Source of the DNA: Bdellovibrionales bacterium
GTDB taxonomy: Bacteria > Bdellovibrionota > Bdellovibrionia > Bdellovibrionales > JAMPXM01
Length of the DNA: 42,058 nt
Reading direction: 5' to 3'
Assembly (NCBI GenBank): GCA_043739185.1
Contig: JAYUEN010000252.1
Coordinates: 1 to 42,058 of the forward strand
Positions within the stretch are counted from its first letter, which is position 1. Each line of letters starts with the position of its first letter. Below are positions 23,009-35,251 of this stretch, in pieces. The translations under genes and the position numbers were made by a program. Under the pieces are notes generated by a model. That model did not search any database and was not told where the DNA came from. It saw nothing but the letters and a program-made list of their open reading frames with translations.

Positions 23009-23102
23009 AATAACTAAACCATATAGTTTTAGTTGAGTTTGGCCCATAGGCGGGCTAGACAATTTGCAATCCTTAGTACATTTTTTTCAAAGTGAAAGAT
23101 CT

Positions 23103-24704
23103 ATGATTAGCACATCAAATTTAAGTCTCCGATTCGGAGCCAAAAAACTTTTCGAAGACGTCAATGTCAAATTTACCCCTGGCAATTGTTATGGACTCAT
23201 TGGCGCCAATGGTGCAGGTAAAACGACCTTTTTTAAAATCCTTTCAAAAGAGATTGAGCCGAATACGGGCGAAGTTTCGATTCCTCCAAATTTAAGACTC
23301 TCGGTTTTAAAGCAAGATCATTATGCTTATGATGAGCAGCAAGTTCTTAAAACCGTGATGATGGGAAATGAAAAACTTTTTAAGATTATGCAGGAAAAAG
23401 AAGAGCTTTATGCCAAGCCTGACTTTTCGGACGCCGACGGAGTTAGGGCATCAGAGCTTGAAATGGCTTTTGCCGAACTTGGCGGTTATGAAGCAGAATC
23501 TGAAGCTGGCACTATGCTGGCCGGTCTTGGAGTAGACGAAAGCCTTCATTTTGGTTTGGTTCGCGATTTGGTAAGTGGAGACAAGGTTAAGGTTTTGCTC
23601 GCTCAGGCCATTTTCGGTCAGCCTGATATTTTGTTATTAGATGAGCCGACAAATCATTTGGATATATACGCAATTCAGTGGCTTGAGGAATTTCTTTTAA
23701 ATTTTGAAAATACCGTCATCGTTATTTCGCATGATCGACACTTTTTAAATAAAGTTTGCACACATATGGCCGACATTGATTATTCAAAAGTAACTACATT
23801 TACCGGAAACTATGATTTCTGGCGCGGGGCAAGTGAACTGAGTCAGCGCCTACTTTCAGATCAAAACAAAAAAAGCTCTGATAAGGCTGAAGAGTTAAAA
23901 GCCTTTATTGCAAGGTTTAGTGCCAATGCCTCGAAATCTCGTCAGGCCTCATCACGCCAAAAGCAGCTCGAGAAGCTTGAATTCAATGATATGCCGAAGT
24001 CTTCTCGAAAGCAGCCATTTGTGGGCTTTGATCTTAAAAAAGAGTTGGGCAATGATATTCTCTTGGTCGAGGGACTTTCAAAAAGTTTGAATGGCGAGAA
24101 AATTCTTAAAAACATAAATTTTCGTATGAACAAGGGCGATAAGATCGCTCTCATCGGAAAAAACGATCTGGCCAAAACCCTTCTTCTTGATATTTTGGCC
24201 GGAGATGTTCAGGCTGACAGCGGTAAATTTTCATGGGGCGGCTCGACGATTCGCAATTATTTCCCTACCGATAATTCGAAATACTTTACTGGTGATGAAG
24301 AAAGTTTAGTCGAGTGGCTCAGGCAATATTCTGAAGACAAAGATGAATCATTCATTCGGGGCTTTTTAGGAAAAATGCTGTTTAGTGGCCCAGAGGCTTT
24401 GAAGCGTCCAAAAGTTTTATCGGGCGGAGAAAAAGTACGTTGTATGCTCGCCAAAATGATGCTCTCAGGGGCCAATGTTTTGATGCTAGACGGGCCGACA
24501 AGTCATCTCGATCTTGAAAGTATCACCGCAGTCAATGAAGGCATCAAGAGATTCAAGGGTAGCGTGATCTTCACCTCTCATGATCACGAATTTATTCAAA
24601 CAGTTGCCAATCGCATAATTGAAATTGATGTCGGCATTACCTATGACAATCACATTAGCTTTGATGAATATATCGAAGAGAGAAAAGCAAAAATATTGAA
24701 GTGA
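23103..24704 (+). CDS. ybiT: ABC-F family ATPase (YbiT/YkpA-like)
   Basis: Two NBDs and no TM segments: GANGAGKT, LLDEPTNHLD, SHDRHFLN, linker RFSANASKSRQASSR, LSGGEKVR. Confidence 0.92.
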   Translation: MISTSNLSLRFGAKKLFEDVNVKFTPGNCYGLIGANGAGKTTFFKILSKEIEPNTGEVSIPPNLRLSVLKQDHYAYDEQQVLKTVMMGNEKLFKIMQEKEELYAKPDFSDADGVRASELEMAFAELGGYEAESEAGTMLAGLGVDESLHFGLVRDLVSGDKVKVLLAQAIFGQPDILLLDEPTNHLDIYAIQWLEEFLLNFENTVIVISHDRHFLNKVCTHMADIDYSKVTTFTGNYDFWRGASELSQRLLSDQNKKSSDKAEELKAFIARFSANASKSRQASSRQKQLEKLEFNDMPKSSRKQPFVGFDLKKELGNDILLVEGLSKSLNGEKILKNINFRMNKGDKIALIGKNDLAKTLLLDILAGDVQADSGKFSWGGSTIRNYFPTDNSKYFTGDEESLVEWLRQYSEDKDESFIRGFLGKMLFSGPEALKRPKVLSGGEKVRCMLAKMMLSGANVLMLDGPTSHLDLESITAVNEGIKRFKGSVIFTSHDHEFIQTVANRIIEIDVGITYDNHISFDEYIEERKAKILK

Positions 24705-24760
24705 TAGTTCGCTTCAATTTTCAGAGGCTCCGCGTTCAGCAGCTGGCATTCAGGAGTCGG

Positions 24761-24878
24761 ATAGCTGCAGCAGATCCAGAATCAGAGTCTGGATCCGTTG
24801 ACTGAAGGCTGTTCACCGAAACTGGCAAGCTGTTGACTGCCGCTGCTGCCGTTAAAACTGATTTGATTTCTAGTGCAA
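24761..24878 (+). repeat. Cryptic intergenic element, copy 1
   Basis: Two blocks (24761-24793, 24815-24878) match the reverse complement of 34545-34577 and 34480-34543 at 25/33 and 53/64 nt (hand count). Confidence 0.85.
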
Positions 24879-25010
24879 AAGCTAGAGCCTCGGAGCAATC
24901 TTTGTCACCAGTGTTCAATTGATAGTCGATAGTAATCGCGGAATCTGCTTTCGGTGAGTGTTGTTCGACTATCAAGTGATGTCCAAAGTCATTATAGCAA
25001 GGCTAGATGC

Positions 25011-25026
25011 TGGCATAGGGCGTGCA
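25011..25026 (+). promoter_or_regulatory. Putative sigma54 promoter
   Basis: TGGCATAGGGCGTGCA (GG-N10-GC), about 35 bp upstream of ATG 25060. Confidence 0.5.
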
Positions 25027-25059
25027 ATTCTAATTGATCTATATACCCGGAGATTTAAT

Positions 25060-26550
25060 ATGAGAAAATTGTTTTGCGCACTTTTATTTGCTCTCATTTC
25101 AAATACTGCAATTGCGAAGACCTATATTGGACAATTGATTCAAAATGAAAGTCCAAACGGCGAAATAGTACTTCAAACCAAAACAGGCCAATATCTATTA
25201 GATATACCAGCTGAAAAATTCGTGGCTGTGAGTTCACTTGTCGGTAAAATTAACTTCGTAGAAGTGCACGCTGAGCCCGGTAGGAACGGTCGAATTCAGA
25301 TTGATCAAATTCCGACGATCATTAGTGGTGATAAGAAAATTACGGGAAGATTGATCAAACGTGCAAATTACAACGGGCCTTATCCATTTGAAATTGACGG
25401 TTTGCCTGTAAAGTTAGGACGCACCAAAACTGTTAACGGCGCAAGTTTTGACGATAAAAGCTCAGAATATTTTGTGGATAAACAGGTGAATGCTGTAGGC
25501 GAGATGGATTCTTATGGTGGCTTTGTTTTGCAATCTATTATGAGAGCTGATGTTTTGGCCGCCGATATTATGCCAGTCGATGATACCGAACAAGACACTG
25601 AATACAGAAAATTTAGGGATGATCCGACCAAGTTTATAAACCGAATTTTACGCGGTAAAGGAGAATTGAAATCTCCCAACTGGATGAAGGGAACTCTATT
25701 TTCAGACTCAACTCAGCCGGTAAAAACCGGGGACGCGGTTCTCATAATTTCAGCTAGTGGACGCGAAGGTGACAGCACCGGAGCTGTGAATGGTCACTTC
25801 TCTGCAGGCATTGGTTATGTTGGTGCGGATGGCCTTGTCTCAGGTGAAATGTTCAATGTCTATGTTACCAACGAAAAAGAAATTGTACCTGGCAATGTGA
25901 ATCTTACGGATTATTTCGGACATTTGGTGAGTGGCCAAAGCAACTATCGCCCAACCTATACTATGATGCTATATGGAATTTCTCCCGAGAAAATTTTAGA
26001 AGTGAAAGCCGAGCTTGATCGCTTTCACCCTGCCTTTCGAGATACAGCACATCCAACCAAAATCACCTGTGCAACAAATTGTGCAACGACGACTGTTCAG
26101 GCTTTGTCCGATATCAATGTATTTGGCACTCAAAGAAACGGCAGTCCTAAAGTTGCGGCGAATTCACCTGATGAATTTATACATTTATCTGAAGAAACTA
26201 GTTTAGCTAAGCCGCCCAGTATTTTAAAAATGGTTGGGTATTTAGCTAAAGTAAAGCGCGCAGAATTTATGCCCGGCCCGGCCTTTGTTTCGATTCTGAA
26301 TAATTTACCTAAGTTAGTTCAAAATAGAGATCTTGGCATTAAGAGAGCCGACTTTATTTTTGGTGGACAAACTCCATCCGCGCGCCCAGTTGGGAAAAAT
26401 CCTTCAATGGGAGTTGCGGATGAGCTGCGTATGCAAGCCGTAGTTGGTGTCGAATTAGTCGCCGACAAAGTTCAGAAATTGACGGGTAAATTCAGTAAGA
26501 AAAAATCTGGGTCGGCCGATCAATGCGAAGCTATGTTCACCGGCAAGTAA
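25060..26550 (+). CDS. Secreted hypothetical protein, candidate permuted papain-like (His-before-Cys) enzyme
   Basis: GGAGA RBS, signal peptide MRKLFCALLFALISNTAIA, motifs GHFSAG and TNCATT. Confidence 0.75.
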   Translation: MRKLFCALLFALISNTAIAKTYIGQLIQNESPNGEIVLQTKTGQYLLDIPAEKFVAVSSLVGKINFVEVHAEPGRNGRIQIDQIPTIISGDKKITGRLIKRANYNGPYPFEIDGLPVKLGRTKTVNGASFDDKSSEYFVDKQVNAVGEMDSYGGFVLQSIMRADVLAADIMPVDDTEQDTEYRKFRDDPTKFINRILRGKGELKSPNWMKGTLFSDSTQPVKTGDAVLIISASGREGDSTGAVNGHFSAGIGYVGADGLVSGEMFNVYVTNEKEIVPGNVNLTDYFGHLVSGQSNYRPTYTMMLYGISPEKILEVKAELDRFHPAFRDTAHPTKITCATNCATTTVQALSDINVFGTQRNGSPKVAANSPDEFIHLSEETSLAKPPSILKMVGYLAKVKRAEFMPGPAFVSILNNLPKLVQNRDLGIKRADFIFGGQTPSARPVGKNPSMGVADELRMQAVVGVELVADKVQKLTGKFSKKKSGSADQCEAMFTGK

Positions 26551-26573
26551 AATTCCCATAAACGAAGCCGCGA

Positions 26574-27059
26574 TTATTTTCTTAAAGATTTTTCATTCTG
26601 AATATGAGTGGGGATTCCGGTTCCGCTCCAAATTGACTTTTGATAGCCGTCGATGCGTATTTTTTTTGAAGTAATATCGACATTGATAAGTCCGTTGAAA
26701 TGAGACTCAACAGCTCTAAAAGCTAAACGCAACAACGTCTCGTCAGCATCATGACAATCATCAACTTTTATTGGAGCTTCATCGCTCTTGTAAATTCGCG
26801 ATTCTTTACTTTGATTTTTAAGAAAAATATTGACGTTTTTAGCCCGCTCCATGGTTTCAGAATATTGCAGTAGTGCAGCTGCGACTTTGCTGTCAAAACA
26901 ATGTGGACAATAAGTTGAATGGCTCAAATCGTCAGGTATCTCTTTTAAAAATGAAAAACTATCTTCTTCTAAAAATTGTGCGCAGTTTTTACAAATCGAC
27001 TCTTTGCAGATTTCACAATTCAAGCTGGACTTTGGGTTCAGGCAAATACAACACGCCAA
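26574..27059 (-). CDS. Cys-rich zinc-finger hypothetical protein
   Basis: CCIC, CEIC, CKNC, CPHC. GGGAG RBS before TTG. C-terminus loosely resembles YbjQ/heavy-metal-binding folds. Confidence 0.7.
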   Translation of the reverse strand: MACCICLNPKSSLNCEICKESICKNCAQFLEEDSFSFLKEIPDDLSHSTYCPHCFDSKVAAALLQYSETMERAKNVNIFLKNQSKESRIYKSDEAPIKVDDCHDADETLLRLAFRAVESHFNGLINVDITSKKIRIDGYQKSIWSGTGIPTHIQNEKSLRK

Positions 27060-27079
27060 ATTTAAACTCCCGATTTGCT

Positions 27080-27532
27080 TTAAGCTTTGTAAGGTCGCTT
27101 GCTTTGTTTTACTTTAATATCAAGTTCATTTAAAATTTTGGTCCAGCCCTTTTTAGTCGCTTCGACATACTCAATTAACACATTTTCATGATCAAGGCTC
27201 AGTTTTGTTTGCGCATTGGCCTTTTCAAACTTGAGCTCCACCTGACTCGATTCTTTTGAAAATAGTGGCACTTCCCAGGTGAAGCTTAGCAGCTTGGGCC
27301 GCTCAAGCTTCAGATATTTTCCGATATGGTCAACGACCTGTCCGTTGCGGCGAACCCGAAAGCGAAAAGCTCCGCCAATTTGAGCGTCAATTTGAATGGC
27401 TAAGATTTCTTTATCACTTGCAAATAACCACGTACTAATATTTTGTGGATCAAGCCACGCATCAAACAGCTTTTCGGGCGAATGATCAAAAAACATCTCG
27501 ACATGAATTTTCGAAAATTTGGCAGCATTCAT
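27080..27532 (-). CDS. SRPBCC/AHSA1-like domain protein
   Basis: SPEKLFDAWLDP, IGGAFRF, GKYLKLERPKLLSFTW, GWTKIL. Confidence 0.9.
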   Translation of the reverse strand: MNAAKFSKIHVEMFFDHSPEKLFDAWLDPQNISTWLFASDKEILAIQIDAQIGGAFRFRVRRNGQVVDHIGKYLKLERPKLLSFTWEVPLFSKESSQVELKFEKANAQTKLSLDHENVLIEYVEATKKGWTKILNELDIKVKQSKRPYKA

Positions 27533-27541
27533 ATTTGAGCC

Positions 27542-29545
27542 TTACCAAAGGGAGCATTTATTTTTTGGTGCCATCCGAGCGCCAGCTTTGCAGTGAAATG
27601 CTTTGGCGAATTCAGGACGATTGGCAACCACGGCATTGACTCTAAATTCTGGCGGCGGATGAAAATTGGTTAGCAAATTATCACGCAATTTCTCATCTGA
27701 TATCTTGGTGCACCAACCTTGAGAATAAGCGAGAAAGTATTGTTGAAGCTCATCGAAGTTTTCAAACTTAGGGGTCTTTCGCTTGGCAAGCCCATTGAGT
27801 GCCATAATGCCAAGTTTAAGTCCGCCATTATCGGCTAAGTTTTCGCCTAAGGTTGCCTTTCCCCGTATCCTTAATTTGGAACCAGGAATGATGTCATAGG
27901 CCTCAGTCTGCTTAACGAAACACTCTGAGAGAGATTCAAATTTTTTCTTAGCAGTTGGTGTCCACCAGGCGACAAAATTTCCGTCGGCATCCATGTCTTT
28001 ACCTGAATCATCAAAACCATGAGTCAACTCATGTCCGATTGTGCTCCCACCCAAGCTTGAATAATTTGCGGCATCACTAAAAAGTGGATCATAAACGGGG
28101 GGAACGAGTTCGCCCAAAGGAAGGACCATTTCATTGTTTGCACTTGTATAGTAGGCGTTGGCTTCCCAAACTGACATTTGCCATTCACTGCGATCCGTAG
28201 GCTTTCCGATTTTAGCAAGATCACGACGAGTTTCAAACTCAGTGGCGCGAAGCTCATTTGAGTAAAACGAGTCATCTTTGATTTCAAGTTTAGTATAATC
28301 GCGCCAATGATCTGGGTATGCTATCTTTCCTGTCAGCTTAGATAATTTTTTTTCGGCTTCGATTTTAGTTTTTTTATCCATCCAAGTGAGTTTTTTCAAA
28401 TCGTCAGCAAATGAAGTCTTAATATTTTGAAAAAGAACCGCGGTCTGATCATGAATTTCTTTTGCATTCGGAATGCTCGCAACATAAGCCTCACCAAGAG
28501 CTTCATTCATTTCGCCAGCAATGATTTGTGTGCAATACTTCCAGCGTGGAGGCAGTTCATTTTGGCCGTTCAAATATTTACGCCAAAATTGAAAATCCTC
28601 TTGTTGAAGTGGGCCATCGAGAAAATAGGCCGATCTGTGAATCAATTTAAACTTAAGAAGATTTGAAAGATCTTCGTTGCTCATCGAGCCAAGAAGAGAA
28701 CTTAGATTCTTCATAAATTCAGGTTCAAGGACGTTGAGTTTTTTGGGAGCATTTATGCCCAGTCCAGCAACAAAATGATCCCAATCTATATGCGGAGCTA
28801 AATCTTTGAGACCTTGAAAATCCATTGGGTGAAATCTCTTGGCCGTATCTCGAAGGTCATCCTTATTCATCGAATGCTTGGCCAATTCGGTTTCGAATGT
28901 CAGAATTTTTTGGCTCATAAGATCCGCATTTTTTTCTGCCTCGCCAAGTAATTTAAACATCGAGCTAATATGCTTCTTGTAGCGTTCTCTTATTTCTTGA
29001 GACTTCGCATCGTCTTTTAAATAATAGTCGGGGTCCGGAAGCGACATACCTCCGCGATCTACAGAAGCAATCATTTGGCTCGAGTCTTTTAAATCTTGAT
29101 CGCTGCCAAATTCAAAAAGTTCATGAGCGCCGATGAGTTCGAGCTCCGCGAAGTGTTGCGCAATGCTTGCACGATCGCCAAGGCTGTCAATTTTTTTTAA
29201 GAGTTTCTTGAGTTCAGCCACGGCATCGGACTTATTTTCAATGCAAGTTCGATAATAGGCACCTAGCTTGGCAGAAGTTCCGCTTGCGGATTTATTTTGA
29301 GAAAGATTTGAAAGTAAGACATTAAGGCTCTCTTCAACATGATCAGATAAAACACTACCTTGGCGCCAGTAGCTAGATTTGTCAGGCGGAAGTTTAAATT
29401 CTTTTAGCCATGCACCACATGAAAATTGGTAAAAATTTTCACAGGGGTCGACTTTGTGATCGATGGCTCCGGGATCCAAAATATTTTGAATCGGAGTGGT
29501 GGCAAAAGCGCTTTGAATGAGAATTAAAATGAATAAATTTATCAT
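27542..29545 (-). CDS. pepO: M13 family metalloendopeptidase (neprilysin/PepO-like), secreted
   Basis: DPCENFYQFSCG, NAYY, GHELTHGFDD, GENLADNGG, HPPPEFRVN. Confidence 0.95.
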   Translation of the reverse strand: MINLFILILIQSAFATTPIQNILDPGAIDHKVDPCENFYQFSCGAWLKEFKLPPDKSSYWRQGSVLSDHVEESLNVLLSNLSQNKSASGTSAKLGAYYRTCIENKSDAVAELKKLLKKIDSLGDRASIAQHFAELELIGAHELFEFGSDQDLKDSSQMIASVDRGGMSLPDPDYYLKDDAKSQEIRERYKKHISSMFKLLGEAEKNADLMSQKILTFETELAKHSMNKDDLRDTAKRFHPMDFQGLKDLAPHIDWDHFVAGLGINAPKKLNVLEPEFMKNLSSLLGSMSNEDLSNLLKFKLIHRSAYFLDGPLQQEDFQFWRKYLNGQNELPPRWKYCTQIIAGEMNEALGEAYVASIPNAKEIHDQTAVLFQNIKTSFADDLKKLTWMDKKTKIEAEKKLSKLTGKIAYPDHWRDYTKLEIKDDSFYSNELRATEFETRRDLAKIGKPTDRSEWQMSVWEANAYYTSANNEMVLPLGELVPPVYDPLFSDAANYSSLGGSTIGHELTHGFDDSGKDMDADGNFVAWWTPTAKKKFESLSECFVKQTEAYDIIPGSKLRIRGKATLGENLADNGGLKLGIMALNGLAKRKTPKFENFDELQQYFLAYSQGWCTKISDEKLRDNLLTNFHPPPEFRVNAVVANRPEFAKAFHCKAGARMAPKNKCSLW

Positions 29546-29595
29546 TTTAAAACCTTATCAGGCGTATTTTGATTAAGTCAAAAGGACTTCAAAAA

Positions 29596-30624
29596 TTATT
29601 TTAGCTGGCTTGCTGTTTTTGTAATATGAGGAAAAAAAGCCTGGTGCCAAATAGGATAGGGAAGGCGCACCGCACTTGCCTTTTCTAGTAGTTCCTTTTC
29701 AGCCAAACTCAACTCCCAGCCCAAGGCTCCAAGATTCTGAATCAATTGATGTTCGTTACGAGCCCCGATGACAATATTGCAAACGCTTGGCCGACTCAGC
29801 AGCCAATTCAAGGCAATTTGTGAAATGCTTTTTTCTCTCGCAATCGCGATTTGCTCTAATGTATCTACGACTCGAAATAGGATGTCTTCATCGTAGCTAA
29901 CGAAATCAATTTGACCGAGTCGGCTCTCTTTTGGGGCCTTTTGATTTCTGCGAATTTTACCGCTTAAGGCACCTCCTGCTAAAGGGCTCCAAACCATGGT
30001 TCCGATTCCCTGGTCGACAGCCAAAGGCATCAGTTCCCATTCAAACTCTCTGCCGACCAAACTATAATAAGCTTGGTGGCAAATGTATTTGTTCCATCGA
30101 TTTTTTTCAGAAATGGATAGTGACTTCATTAAATGCCAAGCTGAAAAATTAGAGCATCCAATATAACGAATTTTTCCGCTGTGAATGAGGGAATCCAAAG
30201 TATCTAGAGTTTCCTCGATGGGAGTATGAGAATCAAAGCCATGCATAATAAAGAGGTCAATATAGTCTGTGCTAAGACGCTTGAGGCTAGCCTCGCAGGA
30301 TTCAATCAGATGAAGTCGCGAAGAGCCAAAATCATTGGGGCCGGTCCCCATCGGAAAGGTTGCTTTGGTAGATAACAAAACTTTGTTTCTTCGGCCTTGC
30401 AATGCCTGCCCCAAAATCTCCTCTGATTTGCCGGCTGAGTAGCCATTGGCGGTATCAAAAAAATTCACTTCTGAGTCCAGACAAATATCAATAAGGCGCT
30501 TGGCTTCTTTAAGTTCAGTAGTGCCCCAAGCTTTAAAAAATTCGCCAGTTCCTCCGAAGGTCGCGGTGCCGAAACTGAATACAGGAACCTTTAGTCCAGA
30601 ATTGCCAAGTCTTCGATACTCCAT
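29596..30624 (-). CDS. Aldo/keto reductase
   Basis: MEYRRLGNSGLKV, FFDTANGYS, STK, GKIRYIGCSN, WSPLAGG. GAGGAG RBS. Confidence 0.95.
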   Translation of the reverse strand: MEYRRLGNSGLKVPVFSFGTATFGGTGEFFKAWGTTELKEAKRLIDICLDSEVNFFDTANGYSAGKSEEILGQALQGRRNKVLLSTKATFPMGTGPNDFGSSRLHLIESCEASLKRLSTDYIDLFIMHGFDSHTPIEETLDTLDSLIHSGKIRYIGCSNFSAWHLMKSLSISEKNRWNKYICHQAYYSLVGREFEWELMPLAVDQGIGTMVWSPLAGGALSGKIRRNQKAPKESRLGQIDFVSYDEDILFRVVDTLEQIAIAREKSISQIALNWLLSRPSVCNIVIGARNEHQLIQNLGALGWELSLAEKELLEKASAVRLPYPIWHQAFFPHITKTASQLK

Positions 30625-30757
30625 TTTTACTCCTCGTTCTTTCAGCCAATCAAGTAACAGAAAAAAAATCAAAGGTCATCCTCGGTAATTTGGTGTCATT
30701 TGGTCTAGACCTAGAGTCAGATGACTTGTCCCGGGTCATCCCGCAAACTAAAAACCT

Positions 30758-32059
30758 GTGAAAAGTTTCATCTTGTTAATCATCATGATTTTGAGTTCTT
30801 TTAAGGCCTTGGCATTGACCAAGCGTGACGCTTTTGAAGCTCTTCAAGCCAGCACAAAATGGAATCTGACGCGAACTTTGCAGGATGAGAGCAATCAAAA
30901 GTCAATTGAAGCAGATTCGGAGTTGCGCCCTCACTTTCAATTGGCCTTTAAACAATTGGCGGCGCGAATCAATCCCATTCAATTTGGCATCAATAATCAA
31001 ATTGAAAGCATCGATACGATTGCTGTCGGTTCGACATCTCTTCAGATGGAGTGGGCGATATCAAACCCAATGGCTGCAGCGCAGTCATTGATAGCCAAAG
31101 CTCAAGCGAAGGCCAGCGGATATCAAGCCAAAGAGTATCAGAATGATTTAACCGCCCTCATGCTTGTGAGCTATCTCAATGTTCAAAAATTAGAGCGGCA
31201 ATTGGCCACGACTGAAGCGAGTCTTGAAAAGAGCAATTTGATTTTGAAGTTGGCCACTTCAAAAAGAAAAATTGGCGCTGGAATTCCGCTCGAAGTGGCG
31301 CGCGCGAAAGGTTTGGTGGGATTAGATCAGGTGAAAAAAATGTTAGCAATGACCAAGCTTTTGAAAAACAAACATGATCTTGAAAAACTCTTAGATCTAA
31401 ATAAAATTGCAACGCCTCTCGAAAAATTAAATCCCCAAATCGTTCCAAATCAAGACTCTCAAAGTTTTATGGCAGCGGCCTTTGAGTCTCGGCTGGATTT
31501 AAGATCCGCAGAAGTGAGTCGTGAAAGCTCGAATATGTTAAAGCAAGAAGCCACCAGGTGGTTTCTCCCGAAAATCTCACTCTTTGCTGAAGCAGGGACA
31601 GTGCAACCAAGTCTATTGGGGCTTCCGGCAAAAACGCTCAACGGGGCTGTGGGAGTGAGTTTTATGATTCCACTCGAATCGGGAGGAATGATAGCAGCGA
31701 AAAGACGCGAAGCCCAGATTGCGAGTTATCGTGCTGAAATAAATCTCAAAGAAAAAAAACAAGAAATACTATCTCAGATTAAAGAAGCCCTCGAAAGCGT
31801 CGCAGCAGCGGAAGAGGGACTCATTGTAGCAAGAAATTATATTGCGACTTCAAGCGAAGAGGCCGATATTGCAGAAAAGAGATTTTTTTCTGGGATGAGC
31901 ACGGTTCTAGATCTCTCTTCTGCACACACCAATCGTGCGCTTGCTGATGATACTTTAACAGAATCAGAATTCAATTTTGAAGCAGCCCGAATAAACTACT
32001 ATCGAGTGTTGGGCGATTTTAAAGACTATTTTGAAGATCCCAGGGGAGTTGAAAAATGA
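30758..32059 (+). CDS. TolC family outer-membrane efflux protein
   Basis: Signal peptide, two helical/beta repeats, RLDLRSA, FLPKISL, GMSTVLDL. Adjacent to EmrA/EmrB homologs. Confidence 0.85.
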   Translation: MKSFILLIIMILSSFKALALTKRDAFEALQASTKWNLTRTLQDESNQKSIEADSELRPHFQLAFKQLAARINPIQFGINNQIESIDTIAVGSTSLQMEWAISNPMAAAQSLIAKAQAKASGYQAKEYQNDLTALMLVSYLNVQKLERQLATTEASLEKSNLILKLATSKRKIGAGIPLEVARAKGLVGLDQVKKMLAMTKLLKNKHDLEKLLDLNKIATPLEKLNPQIVPNQDSQSFMAAAFESRLDLRSAEVSRESSNMLKQEATRWFLPKISLFAEAGTVQPSLLGLPAKTLNGAVGVSFMIPLESGGMIAAKRREAQIASYRAEINLKEKKQEILSQIKEALESVAAAEEGLIVARNYIATSSEEADIAEKRFFSGMSTVLDLSSAHTNRALADDTLTESEFNFEAARINYYRVLGDFKDYFEDPRGVEK

Positions 32060-32880
32060 TAAAGGCGATCGCACAAAGTCGTTCTCCTAGAGCATGGCTT
32101 TTAATGGGGGTATCATTCTTGGCCGTAGTCGTGCTTCTCGGATACTGGTATATTTGGACCTCGAAATTTGTTTCAACCGATAGCGCCTATGTTGAAACCG
32201 ATCTTTCACCGGTGAATTCACGAATCATGGGCTATGTACGTGAGGTATTGGTTTCTGAAAATGAAGAAGTTAAAAAAGGGCAATCGCTCTTAAAACTCGA
32301 TGATACCGATGTGAAAATTGAAGCGGGATTTAAAGAGGCCAAATTTAAAAAAGCAGAGGCCGATGCCAAACGCGCCCAAATTTTAGGAAAGCAACATGCG
32401 GTTTCAGAATCTGATCTTGAGTTAGCCGAGGCAACCCTTACCGGCGTAAGAGCGGATATGGACGGTAGTCATTTAAAAATGAAATTCACAGAAGTGGTTT
32501 CTCCTATTGATGGTGTGGTTGCAAAAAAATCGGCGCAGACCGGCCAATTTGTACAGCCTGGGCAAACACTCTTTGTGATTGTTCCGACCGATCACGCATG
32601 GATCAAAGCCAACTTCAAAGAAAGTCAAATCCGCCTGATTCGGGCAGGCCAAGAAGTTGAAGTTCATGTGGATGCTTATCCGGGAGAAACTTGGCCAGGA
32701 AGAGTCGAAGCTATATTTCCGAGCTCAGTGGCTTCTTTAAGTTTACTTCCTCCTGAAAATTCCTCCGGCAATTTCACCAAGGTGGTGCAGAGGTTTCCGG
32801 TGAAAATCACTTTTCAACAGCGAGGAGATAAAAAACTTCTGCCGGGAATGTCTGTTGAACCCGTGATCATTGTAAAATAA
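32056..32880 (+). CDS. emrA: HlyD/EmrA family membrane fusion protein
   Basis: STDSAYV, SPIDGVV, WIKANFKESQ, LLPPENSSGNFTKVVQRFPV. ATGA overlap with the TolC gene. Confidence 0.92.
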   Translation: MIKAIAQSRSPRAWLLMGVSFLAVVVLLGYWYIWTSKFVSTDSAYVETDLSPVNSRIMGYVREVLVSENEEVKKGQSLLKLDDTDVKIEAGFKEAKFKKAEADAKRAQILGKQHAVSESDLELAEATLTGVRADMDGSHLKMKFTEVVSPIDGVVAKKSAQTGQFVQPGQTLFVIVPTDHAWIKANFKESQIRLIRAGQEVEVHVDAYPGETWPGRVEAIFPSSVASLSLLPPENSSGNFTKVVQRFPVKITFQQRGDKKLLPGMSVEPVIIVK

Positions 32881-32902
32881 ATTGTGAAATGAGCCATTTG
32901 AA

Positions 32903-34471
32903 ATGAGTAACGACCACGATCATATGACGATACGAGAATGGATTGCCGTCATTGGCGGAGCACTCGGTGCATTCATGGCGATCTTAGATATTCAAGTTAC
33001 CAATGCCAGTATCCGCGAAATTTCAGGCGCTCTCAATTTAGATATTAGTGAGAGCGGCTGGATTTCAACGGCCTATTTAATTGCAGAGATAATAATTATT
33101 CCACTCACGGCATTTTTTTCGACTTCTTTTGGAGTCAGAAGATATTTGCTTTTCAATTGCGCAGGTTTTTTATTGGCCTCGATCGCGTGTGGGCTTTCTT
33201 GGAGTCCTGAAAGCATGATCATTTTTCGCGCGTTTCAAGGCTTCACAGGCGGTACGCTTATTCCGATGTCCTTTCAAATTATTTTAAGCTTGATGCCAGA
33301 AAAGCAAAAGCCAATTGGGCTTACCATTTTCGGATTGACCATTACTCTGGCGCCTACGCTTGGGCCCTCACTTGGTGGCTGGCTAACAGATGAATATGGC
33401 TGGCGATTTATATTCTTCATCAATTTGATTCCGGGTCTTCTGATGATTGCCGCCCTACGCTTTGGACTTAAAAAATCTCTTCCTAAAATTGAACATCTGA
33501 AAAAGTTAGATCTGCTCTCGGTTCTTGCGCTAGTTGTTGGTCTAAGTTCCTTTACCTATATTCTAGAAGAGGGACCGAAAGCAGATTGGTTTGATTCAAA
33601 TTTGATAAGATCTTTATTTTTAGCAAGCCTCTTGTCATTTCCGTTTTTTATTATGAGACAACTTGAAATCGCAACACCCATTTTAAATTTGAGACTTTTT
33701 AAAGATCGCAATTTTGCCATCGGGACTATGATCACAGCTCTTGCCGGTTGCGCTCTGTTTAGCGGAATCTACTCGCTTTCACTATTTCTTGGACAAGTTC
33801 AAAGCTATAGCGCTTCGCAAATTGGGAATGTTTTGATGTGGGTGGGGCTACCACAACTATTGGTGATGCCGTTAGTGCCGAGTCTTATGAGGAAAATAGA
33901 TCTTCGTTTATTGGCAATAATGGGGCTTGGGTTATTCGCCTATTCTAATTGGATGAATACGGATTTGAGTTGGCACTTTGGCGGTGAAGAATTTCGAGCC
34001 TCGCTGTTGGTGCGGGCCTTAGGTCAACCGCTGTTCGTGATTCCACTTTCAGTTATGTCGATGTCTTTGATTAAAAAAGATCAAGCCGGGGACGCTTCTT
34101 CGATTTTCAATGTCATGAGAAATTTAGGAGCATCACTTGGGATCGCTCTCACCAGCACTTTTCTCGTGAAGCGCCAGACGCTACATTTCCTTAGCAAAGC
34201 CGAATCACTCTCGTCTTTTGACTATAGTTTAAATGAAAAAATATATAAGACTGAGTTGAGTCTAAGAGGTGCGGGCCTCGATGCTCAAAGTGCAAAACTT
34301 CGCTCTTTTCAGGAAATTTTGCGGCCAACCATACGGGATTCGATAATCGCTGCATTTTCTGATATTTTCTTTGTCTTGAGTTTTGGCCTTATCGTTTGCA
34401 TTCTACTTGTCATTTTTCTCAAGCGCGTACGAACTGAGGATAGCTCATCTGAAGAAATGGGATTGGGTTGA
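32903..34471 (+). CDS. emrB: DHA2 family MFS efflux permease (EmrB/QacA)
   Basis: FMAILDIQVTN, WISTAYL, RAFQGFTGG, APTLGPSLGGWLTD, WRFIFFINL, RNLGASLG. Confidence 0.93.
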   Translation: MSNDHDHMTIREWIAVIGGALGAFMAILDIQVTNASIREISGALNLDISESGWISTAYLIAEIIIIPLTAFFSTSFGVRRYLLFNCAGFLLASIACGLSWSPESMIIFRAFQGFTGGTLIPMSFQIILSLMPEKQKPIGLTIFGLTITLAPTLGPSLGGWLTDEYGWRFIFFINLIPGLLMIAALRFGLKKSLPKIEHLKKLDLLSVLALVVGLSSFTYILEEGPKADWFDSNLIRSLFLASLLSFPFFIMRQLEIATPILNLRLFKDRNFAIGTMITALAGCALFSGIYSLSLFLGQVQSYSASQIGNVLMWVGLPQLLVMPLVPSLMRKIDLRLLAIMGLGLFAYSNWMNTDLSWHFGGEEFRASLLVRALGQPLFVIPLSVMSMSLIKKDQAGDASSIFNVMRNLGASLGIALTSTFLVKRQTLHFLSKAESLSSFDYSLNEKIYKTELSLRGAGLDAQSAKLRSFQEILRPTIRDSIIAAFSDIFFVLSFGLIVCILLVIFLKRVRTEDSSSEEMGLG

Positions 34472-34479
34472 TTTGATTG

Positions 34480-34577
34480 TTGCACTTGAAATTAAATCAG
34501 TTTTAATGGCAGCGGCAGCTGTCAGCCGTTTTACAGTTTCGGTTGCCCGATTCAGTTTCTGGATCCGCTGCCGCTAA
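34480..34577 (-). repeat. Cryptic intergenic element, copy 2
   Basis: Inverted homolog of 24761-24878. Fills most of the gap between the convergent emrB and DUF3106-like genes. Confidence 0.85.
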
Positions 34578-34611
34578 CTGATTGGCGAGTGCCTGACTCA
34601 GATAAGCAGAT

Positions 34612-34983
34612 CTAAGCGGTATTTCGACGTATCCTTGAGCGCGAAGGCCGCTTGGGCCTACGATTGCTATCTCGATGTGAATCTCTTTTTAAAGTTTTGT
34701 TTTTTAACCAAGCCTTGCGTGCAGGACTCAAGCTTTTGATTTTATCATTTTTTTGAGTGAGCTTTGATTTTTCTTCTGGAGTCAATTTTTGATAGTTAGA
34801 CCAATTGGTTTCGAGCTTTTCTTGTTTAGCTTCAGACATCGTTTTCCAGGCTTTATAATTTTTCAGTGCCAACTCTTGATCAGCTGGCGAAAGATCCTTG
34901 TATTCAGCCCGAAGTGGTTGGGAAATGAGAATGCAAAAGGCAATTAGCAAAATGATGAGAGGAAAGTTTTTCTGACTAGTCAT
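34612..34983 (-). CDS. DUF3106-like exported protein
   Basis: GGAGG RBS, signal peptide, repeats YKDLSPADQ / WKTMSEAKQ / YQKLTPEEK / IKSLSPARK, Arg-rich tail. Confidence 0.7.
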   Translation of the reverse strand: MTSQKNFPLIILLIAFCILISQPLRAEYKDLSPADQELALKNYKAWKTMSEAKQEKLETNWSNYQKLTPEEKSKLTQKNDKIKSLSPARKAWLKNKTLKRDSHRDSNRRPKRPSRSRIRRNTA

Positions 34984-35251
34984 CAGAATCCTCCGCACCA
35001 ATTTCAGCCGGCGGACTTACCTCTGGAATATCGGCAACGGTGGCGGCAGAAGTAATATCTGAATCCGTCGCATTTTCAAGCAGTTCGAGATTTTCAATTA
35101 CGCGCATTTTAGAGAAAAATTCTGGGCGCTCTAGTACTTCTTTTGGTACTTCTTTTGGTACTTCTTTTGGAATTACCTTTGGCATTTGGGCCCAGCAAAT
35201 GGCTGAAAATCCTAAAATGAGAAGGCTAATAAAAAATCGATGAAGACTCAT
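34976..35251 (-). CDS. Small exported protein with PKEV repeats
   Basis: Signal peptide, PKVI-PKEV-PKEV-PKEV, EFFSKMRVIENLELLE. Overlaps the start of the next gene. Confidence 0.7.
   Translation of the reverse strand: MSLHRFFISLLILGFSAICWAQMPKVIPKEVPKEVPKEVLERPEFFSKMRVIENLELLENATDSDITSAATVADIPEVSPPAEIGAEDSDD
35135..35182. repeat. 12-bp in-frame tandem repeat
   Basis: TACTTCTTTTGG x3 perfect, plus one degenerate AATTACCTTTGG. Confidence 0.95.

Follow-up and report, generated by a model that had tools for sequence, protein, structure and literature searches.

Probable scars of a palindromic twin-gene cassette at about 140 loci of a Bdellovibrionales genome

PF05635/TIGR02436 is a large protein family for which structures have been solved and, to our knowledge, no function is known. 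Bacterial MITEs are short, internally deleted derivatives of gene-bearing, transposase-encoding elements, with defined terminal inverted repeats and a target-site duplication. ORF-bearing intervening sequences (IVSs) lie within 16S or 23S rRNA genes between complementary borders that form a stable stem, and RNase III excises them from the RNA. According to PMC4990558, those of 23S rRNA encode S23p/PF05635 and are known in Leptospira and Coxiella. REPIN-RAYT systems, as presented in PMC3116915, comprise high-copy, extragenic units of two inverted arms and a variable spacer, and the Avd pentamer is described in two reports as binding an RNA stem-loop with bases flipped out (10.1101/2023.10.23.563531; PMC10053308). 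Our literature search, which covered accessible full texts, turned up neither a twin-gene four-helix-bundle cassette nor gene-less derivatives of one; the main text of PMC4679880, on TAACTGA repeats, does not mention helix-bundle or intervening-sequence genes, and PMC10910872 names the four-helix-bundle family only in a figure legend.

We analyzed a window of 42,058 nucleotides (the whole stretch of DNA under study), in which a sequence-only reading had noticed a two-copy intergenic element with a protein-coding substitution pattern and a frame broken at the same junction in both copies. Both homologous blocks were located where that reading had placed them, with homology well above chance (block B, 82.8% identity across 64 nt, genome-wide E 1.5e-11). 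As it had reported, 12 of the 17 codon differences are synonymous (the remaining five being I/L, S/T, G/V, L/R, and V/I), the junction of copy 1 is 21 nt long and contains an in-frame TGA, that of copy 2 is a single nucleotide, and the neighbors are unrelated, an ABC-F ATPase gene at copy 1 and a DUF3106 gene at copy 2. The element proved longer than claimed, with arm A beginning at 24735 (copy 1) and 34602 (copy 2). The features are as follows.

23064..24704, + strand: ABC-F ATPase gene, upstream of copy 1 (ORF)
24720..24734, + strand: apparent extra first unit of copy 1 before arm A, outer end ragged (read from the sequence)
24735..24795, + strand: copy 1 arm A, nine C-N-G triplets (nhmmer E 2.3e-14)
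24796..24814, + strand: copy 1 deletion junction (TGA register common with gene-bearing copies)
24815..24889, + strand: copy 1 arm B and its decayed outer extension (nhmmer E 2.8e-17; flank profile)
34480..34543, - strand: copy 2 arm B (nhmmer E 7.9e-16)
34544..34546, - strand: copy 2 deletion junction, cargo genes without trace
34547..34602, - strand: copy 2 arm A (nhmmer E 1.5e-11)
34612..35001, - strand: DUF3106 gene, upstream of copy 2 (ORF)

An extra unit like that of copy 1 also precedes arm A in C221, C386, and C172. Arm A of copy 1 ends in a small inner hairpin (24773-24795) that is also present in gene-bearing C452, C155, and C342, and its arm B proper (24815-24872, eight C-N-G triplets) is 96% identical to arm B of C452 and C342. 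Within the junction, the TGA at 24803-24805 is the stop codon of the right-hand four-helix-bundle gene, now deleted, and the following 9 nt are its spacer; the same register occurs in gene-bearing C215, C155, C452, C342, C172, and C387, and a stop remnant at this offset is found in 19 of 125 copies. Arm A of copy 2 begins about 10 nt past the DUF3106 stop codon, and its arm B stops just short of 34471, where the convergent MFS gene has its stop codon. Cargo left in the window copies amounts to a stop codon at most, and the copies themselves are probably inert. Contigs of the public DNA runs X1 and X2, from which the window may have come, span the flanks of both copies with zero differing letters.

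Intact cassettes of 0.8-0.9 kb were found at C215 and C29. Their order is arm A, a four-helix-bundle gene directed outward, a hairpin, a second paralog, and arm B; the twin genes are divergent, back-to-back around a perfect central hairpin of 25-47 bp within which both ribosome-binding sites lie. The L type adjoins arm A at 7/7 loci and the R type adjoins arm B at 9/9, and 16 of 18 four-helix-bundle tblastn rows lie at most 900 nt from an arm. L and R cargo proteins score above the TIGR02436 and PF05635 cut-offs (all four proteins from the intact cassettes), and their models (pLDDT 95) have 2GSC as the best fold match (TM 0.74-0.83). Partly deleted cassettes at C155, C452, C342, C172, and C387 form a deletion series, the joints of which show overlaps of 2-10 nt. 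The hairpin arms vary between copies and are perfect inside each copy, the loop is found in both orientations, and the arm is directly repeated (26+ nt) on both sides in 10 of 28 twins. No transposase, recombinase, or reverse transcriptase is encoded by the cassette, which carries only the two four-helix-bundle proteins, and no sigma-70-type promoter was found in the C215 cassette. Read-through of the gene R stop into arm B was ruled out, as the offset is 9, 8, or 5 nt depending on the copy.

The cassette resembles the rRNA IVSs in its protein family, in having a gene inside roughly mirror-image flanks, in its sporadic occurrence, and in ORF decay. However, it has two divergent paralogs around a hairpin holding the ribosome-binding sites, occupies about 140 loci that are mostly gene-less, and has arms that appear to pair poorly, with no covariation found. 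Moreover, its copies are not in rRNA genes: no rRNA match was found within the window, where the copies sit between protein genes, and 121 of 125 copies lie outside ORFs of 90+ aa, most with flanking ORFs, in a genome that is 88% coding. The cargo also shares a homologous four-helix bundle with the Avd of diversity-generating retroelements (TM 0.67 to 4DWL/8UB7), but neither a reverse transcriptase (PF00078, in G000, 97.65% complete) nor a template/variable repeat pair was found in the genome. Mutagenesis of the retroelement type was ruled out by the missing PF00078 match and by the lack of adenine-specific variation, A columns B1, B5, B41, and B43 and T columns B33 and B48 being 97-100% conserved, so that both strands keep their A positions.

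The element is far from two-copy. Genome-wide, 140 arm-B and 84 arm-A matches fall in 140 clusters (nhmmer, E<=0.1), nearly all intergenic and about one per 35 kb; some 130 loci are gene-less, and few bear genes. Between codirectional genes the copies are biased toward the sense orientation (44 vs 11, p 9e-6). Of 65 junctions, no two are alike, which suggests independent deletions, and their lengths group in 6-nt steps. A broken frame is not the rule, since the 59 short junctions comprise 26 in the reader's frame, 27 shifted in one direction, and 6 in the opposite one. In 24 of 125 arm-B copies the final codons of gene R survive with its stop, and 87 of 125 show no gene remnant. By BLAST, a second hairpin family is present in some junctions. 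We concluded that the gene-less copies very probably derive from the twin cassette, each likely being the scar of an inserted cassette minus its fold-back core. Counting against this are the scarcity of intact cassettes, two for some 140 loci, and the 87 copies lacking any gene remnant. The best explanation overall, which we consider probable, is that each window stretch joins the left arm of the 0.8-0.9-kb palindromic cassette to its right arm, the core having been deleted. Of the four options offered by the sequence-only reading, the one that invoked a mobile gene family and its internally deleted remnants proved right, but what is left over is non-coding arms, not coding fragments. Altogether, the original observation was partly confirmed and its interpretation partly supported.

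Like MITEs, the gene-less copies are short and internally deleted, and only the longest have complementary termini (about 22 nt). They differ in that the parent cassette lacks a transposase, the ends are ragged, each junction is unique, and target duplication was not seen; inspection by eye of four copies with both termini revealed no flanking duplication. No empty-versus-filled allele pair was found at the nucleotide level, so neither defined ends nor a target duplication could be assigned, and 4 DNA runs from a single study revealed no empty-site allele.

Across the 35 family genomes, the arm model matched at least 96 times in G000, 50 times in G002, and 56 times in G003, with one weak match in G024 and none in the other 31, including zero in the congener G001. 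The three arm-rich genomes are the only family genomes with hairpin-centred twins, a co-occurrence that rests on three genomes of one genus. Another twin-bearing genome has three matches to its own arm (BLAST), all at cassettes. No arm was found downstream of the ABC-F orthologs in G001, G002, G003, and G006; in G002 and G003, arm copies lie upstream of the ortholog, in opposite orientations. Horizontal transfer via contig C495 (94.5% identical to a G002 cassette over 490 nt; ABC-F gene 76.9%) was considered and dropped because C495 is probably misbinned, G000 having a second, 67% identical copy of its flanking genes on C31 and G002 none.

The arms are arrays of C-N-G triplets, mostly spaced 3 or 6 nt apart, which accounts for the apparent synonymous change. 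C and G are 97% conserved and the middle base 60%, although copies are only 76% alike (median arm-B identity), and the 97% is inflated by HMM detection bias; pure neutral decay would explain this conservation only given a diverse donor pool, a point against the scar explanation. That the arms are recoded small peptides or silent coding cassettes, as the sequence-only reading had proposed, is already largely refuted and very improbable. Arm B does show a third-position pattern (conservation 0.92, 0.87, and 0.71 by codon position), just 16 of 125 copies are interrupted by a stop in the reader's frame, the C215 subfamily has arm B in frame with gene R, and in copy 1 a GTG that overlaps the ABC-F stop codon could start a run of 34 codons across arm A. 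However, non-synonymous changes make up half of all changes, and the synonymous excess is 0.47 in the antisense frame sharing third positions versus 0.51 in sense. Free positions track the triplets at codon positions 1 and 2 too; a second-position base varies freely (R/L/Q), several four-fold sites are fixed at 91-98%, and arm A overall has no period-3 pattern (0.77, 0.76, 0.77). In addition, indels shift the frame in 22 of 125 arm-B copies, in 12 copies the offset past the R stop measures 8 nt, compared with 5 nt in G003, G003 retains the C-N-G spacing but not the Leu codon, and the TGA is the cargo stop. In no frame on either strand did the arms combine purifying selection with a maintained frame. 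The arms also illustrate how an array of spaced triplets can imitate the substitutions of a protein-coding gene. Equally hard to credit is a family of structured non-coding RNAs. Individual copies, among them those of the window (z -2.0 and -3.0), fold moderately well, and a helix of 11 bp between A and B is predicted for C452; yet RNAalifold on 22 copies gave a consensus of -1.75 kcal/mol on either strand, the best Watson-Crick excess between A and B in 59 paired copies was 0.23 against a null maximum of 0.20 and lay outside the pairing register, and an Rfam search of the window matched only a tRNA.

Two further explanations were weighed. The gene-less A+B unit might itself be what moves, as a miniature of REPIN/MITE type that a Y1 (RAYT-like) transposase copies in trans, with the twin genes as cargo inserted in its junction. 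The excess of gene-less loci speaks for it, as do the second hairpin family in some junctions, the nature of the arms as imperfect inverted repeats, the better folding of single copies than of shuffles (median z -1.85), and the presence of 11 Y1 genes, three with an arm 200-250 nt upstream. The copies also share the REPIN layout; however, their arms lack a highly conserved 16-mer doublet, arms A and B, two distinct degenerate arrays, have no consensus hairpin, and no transposase flanked by arms was found, the parent carrying four-helix-bundle genes instead. None of the 11 Y1 genes has arms on both sides and eight have none within 1.2 kb, and with a single query the expanded Y1 family turned up in 27 of the 35 family genomes, G003 with its 56 arm matches not being among them; Y1 transposases do not appear to track the arms. 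With 0/65 junctions identical and gene-end remnants in otherwise empty copies, we regard the miniature as improbable and lean toward the gene-less copies being independent scars. Marginally less probable still, and compatible with a cassette origin, is that selection keeps the arms in place as genome-wide RNA sites altering mRNA stability or read-through, with the four-helix-bundle ring or a host protein as ligand. Position-specific conservation, the 4:1 sense bias, and the precedent of Avd, which binds its stem-loop through all five protomers (10.1101/2023.10.23.563531), fit this proposal. Against it, the sites are not common between species, being absent from the congener and, in four relatives, from the region downstream of the ABC-F ortholog, and the G002 and G003 copies lie upstream in opposite orientations.

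Under the scar explanation, a whole cassette would insert into intergenic gaps, mostly sense to local transcription, and its core, a long imperfect palindrome, would be deleted between short homologies or 6-nt arm units, or alternatively be lost between directly repeated arms. The arms may be conserved as putative binding sites of the cargo protein, a candidate role to which we give slightly less than even chances: each subunit of an Avd-like ring would read one C-N-G unit in single-stranded nucleic acid, the middle base thereby being left free. The cassette likely spreads without a transposase of its own, by a mode of movement that we infer. Movement might proceed through a single-stranded fold-back form, with joining by host enzymes, a proposal prompted by the absence of transposase, recombinase, and reverse transcriptase genes from the cassette; as written, this step is doubtful. 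Ordinary replication template switching also yields perfect arms and loop inversion, according to PMC8794818, so that neither feature is proof of a special intermediate. A little more doubtful is a self-propagating element without catalytic transposase, recombinase, or reverse transcriptase, in which a ring of two old Avd-like paralogs would grip the C-N-G arrays on a single-stranded fold-back copy of the element and deliver that copy to new intergenic sites, the approximately 140 insertions then becoming core-less; a paralog on each strand would ensure that one is expressed whichever direction is read through. If this were true, the very large PF05635 family would gain a function and a binding code. 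A cassette carrying genes of such a family has left about 140 marks on one genome, and the deletion series and the sharp C-N-G conservation with its free middle base point to a candidate binding site and render the question of mobility testable. Among single-gene relatives from the host group, an arm-gene-inverted-arm layout was seen in 11 of the 30 with enough flank.

The paired element at the junction-bearing intergenic sites of the window is real, and is neither coding nor two-copy: it consists of relics of a twin-gene variant of an IVS-type four-helix-bundle cassette. Both copies join a first block (arm A) to a second block (arm B) at a junction, and the assembly around both is backed by public DNA contigs:
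24735-24889, plus strand: copy 1, placed after an ABC-F ATPase gene
34480-34602, minus strand: copy 2, lying between the convergent DUF3106 and MFS genes and accounting for most of the 140 nt that separate them
The sequence-only reading had described the two homologous blocks exactly, with 17 differing codons (12 synonymous) and junctions of 21 nt in copy 1 and 1 nt in copy 2. Its count of two copies gave way to 140 clusters when the window's own 4.85-Mb genome (G000) was searched by BLAST and iterated nhmmer (E<=0.1), nhmmer yielding 140 arm B and 84 arm A matches. Further counts are based on matches of at least 25 bits (125 arm B, 64 arm A). Of the 125 arm-B copies, 121 lay outside ORFs of at least 90 aa, as predicted by a simple caller under which 88% of the genome counts as coding; between co-directional genes, 44 copies were oriented with transcription versus 11 against (p = 9e-6). 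The junction was indeed the variable point, the A-to-B distance ranging from 35 to 766 nt across copies.

Because long junctions hold genes, they revealed the parent cassette. On contigs C215 and C29, the arms surround a divergent pair of intact genes, L and R (97-98 codons each), arranged around a central perfect hairpin (36 and 47 bp, respectively) whose arms carry both ribosome-binding sites. All four proteins passed the TIGR02436 and PF05635 cut-offs. The cargo proteins matched PDB 2GSC in sequence (E 4.9e-5), and their predicted folds gave TM values of 0.74-0.83 to 2GSC and 0.67 to Avd, with no E below 0.001 in Foldseek; the closest named relatives were from Bdellovibrionales MAGs (73-83% identical), in keeping with an uncultured Bdellovibrionales-type host. 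Contigs C155, C452, C342, C172, and C387 carried partial deletions with joints overlapping by 2-10 nt. Sixteen of the 18 tblastn rows for cassette genes adjoined an arm; paralog L was invariably next to arm A and paralog R next to arm B. The other two rows represented a single locus (L183) on contig C495, the cassette of which was 94.5% identical to one in the relative G002; this contig is probably misbinned, as its genes duplicate a C31 region at 67% identity.

In six gene-bearing copies, the stop codon of gene R is followed by 9 nt and then by arm B. The TGA of copy 1 lies at the identical place, the codons after it match C452 letter for letter, and its arm B shares 96% identity with the B arms of C452 and C342; the TGA is the stop codon of gene R, left over from the gene-bearing state. 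Among the 125 copies, a stop remnant was found at the 9-nt offset in 19 and at 8 nt in 12 (remaining offsets, 0-2 each), the last codons of gene R were also kept in 24, and in 87 none of three criteria revealed a remnant. A 34-codon frame over arm A of copy 1 (window 24701-24805, plus strand) begins at a GTG that overlaps the stop codon of the ABC-F gene, ends at the relic TGA, and is absent from copy 2.

The arms are built as arrays of C-N-G triplets, 17 in all, spaced 3 to 8 nt apart. Conservation averages 0.97 at both C and G and 0.60 at N, and the middle base is fixed in two triplets. In twelve of the 17, the middle base occupies a third codon position of the frame from which a protein-coding pattern had been proposed, and therefore the arms look gene-like; the five middles on codon positions 1 or 2 were equally free (0.32-0.73). 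In favour of a coding reading, a stop interrupted this frame in only 16 of the 125 copies, and some two-fold positions varied purine-only or pyrimidine-only, although a transition bias could give the same. However, family-wide, arm B was 51% synonymous in the claimed frame versus 47% in the antisense frame sharing its third positions, frameshifting indels occurred in 22 of 125 copies, and the relative G003 retained the triplet spacing but not the apparent Leu codon. The arms are thus not coding, and the triplet arrays account for the synonymous appearance. A structured RNA, with which the moderate folding of single copies would agree (median z -1.85), is not supported either: Rfam gave no match, the consensus energy of 22 copies was -1.75 kcal/mol on either strand, and A-B covariation was absent in 59 paired copies.

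Using a sequence-only model built from 22 copies, we analyzed arm distribution in 35 family genomes. At least 96 matches were found in G000, 50 in G002, 56 in G003, and one weak match in G024, with zero in the other 31, including the congener G001. Hairpin-centred twins occurred in the same three genomes, G000, G002, and G003; since these are kin, the co-occurrence represents one or two events rather than three. No four-helix-bundle gene was found in G001, and G018 had a divergent gene pair without the hairpin. No arm was present 3' of the ABC-F orthologs in four relatives, where gene order differs. Upstream of the ABC-F gene, copies in opposite orientations were observed in G002 and G003, with none there in G000 and G001:
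L172:1210-1316 (G003): arm-family insertion in the intergenic gap preceding ABC-F
L173:3240-3272 (G002): arm-family insertion in the intergenic gap preceding ABC-F
These two insertions arose independently. In a wider scan restricted to one genome per species (79 of 199 confirmed loci kept), a second family gene was divergent within 350 nt at 34 of the 79 loci, and a perfect central repeat of at least 15 bp occurred in 25 of these 34 twins (14 of 16 assemblies). Named hosts were mostly Bdellovibrionota, with some loci from the same genus as G000. By eye, the outer flanks of the twins resembled the arms in being short-unit arrays and were directly repeated over at least 26 nt in 10 of 28 twins examined.

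L and R are old paralogs, with 49-65% identity inside a cassette and each in its own clade in this genus. Silent identity was usually higher within a cassette than towards another subfamily's partner (e.g., 0.59 versus 0.36-0.42). One G002 cassette (L035, G002:C300) had two R genes, 94% identical, and outer arms that are inverted for 141 nt, as though one half had served as template for the other. Within a subfamily, the hairpin loop occurred in either orientation (locus L002 versus L043 and L036; L041 versus L040; L105 versus L111), which shows repeated copying across the hairpin; ordinary template switching is described as also able to yield such copying (PMC8794818).

In its build, the cassette resembles the ORF-bearing intervening sequences of rRNA, from which its location sets it apart. 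The family looks like REPINs but lacks their conserved doublet, and like MITEs but lacks defined ends and a transposase. Neither the twin cassette nor its relics turned up in our literature search, and this variant is apparently undescribed so far. Most likely, the cassette enters intergenic gaps whole and the palindromic core is lost afterwards by deletion. All 65 paired loci had unique junctions with lengths in 6-nt steps, and the arms are common to gene-bearing and empty copies; these results favour independent scars rather than an amplified miniature. The arms may be binding sites of the encoded ring, as suggested by their conservation code and by analogy with Avd, a pentamer described as touching an RNA stem-loop via all five protomers (10.1101/2023.10.23.563531); XCC0516 is reported as a homopentamer (PMC4990558). 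No reverse transcriptase was found in G000. Of its 11 Y1 transposase genes, three had an arm 200-250 nt upstream and none was flanked by arms on both sides; the expanded Y1 family was present in 27 of the 35 family genomes, with none detected in G003. The element had ragged ends, with no target duplication observed. We consider it rather doubtful that the cassette is a mobile element without a transposase.

This Y1 (IS200-like) family, whose eight or more copies are 90-100% identical as proteins and have an upstream motif in common, has apparently been spreading recently:
G000:C31:9523-10050: Y1 (IS200-like) copy
G000 contigs C113, C156, C167, C224, C298, and C356: further copies
Upstream of a RAYT-like gene (L085, G000:C386:67415-68053) lies a perfect REP-type doublet, and downstream of it a half copy. 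A second family of hairpin repeats occupies at least 22 loci, 12 of 22 lying within 350 nt of an A/B arm and some inside the junction; examples are:
G000:C356:8214-8353: second hairpin family
G000:C34:49695-49813: second hairpin family
G000:C50:17007-17039: second hairpin family
In the longest copies (e.g., C387:3888 and C36:1586), the outer end of arm B is A-rich and purine-ended, like the ribosome-binding arm of the central hairpin; the ends and centre of the element may represent one type of site; alternatively, the gene downstream may receive a translation enhancer from the element.
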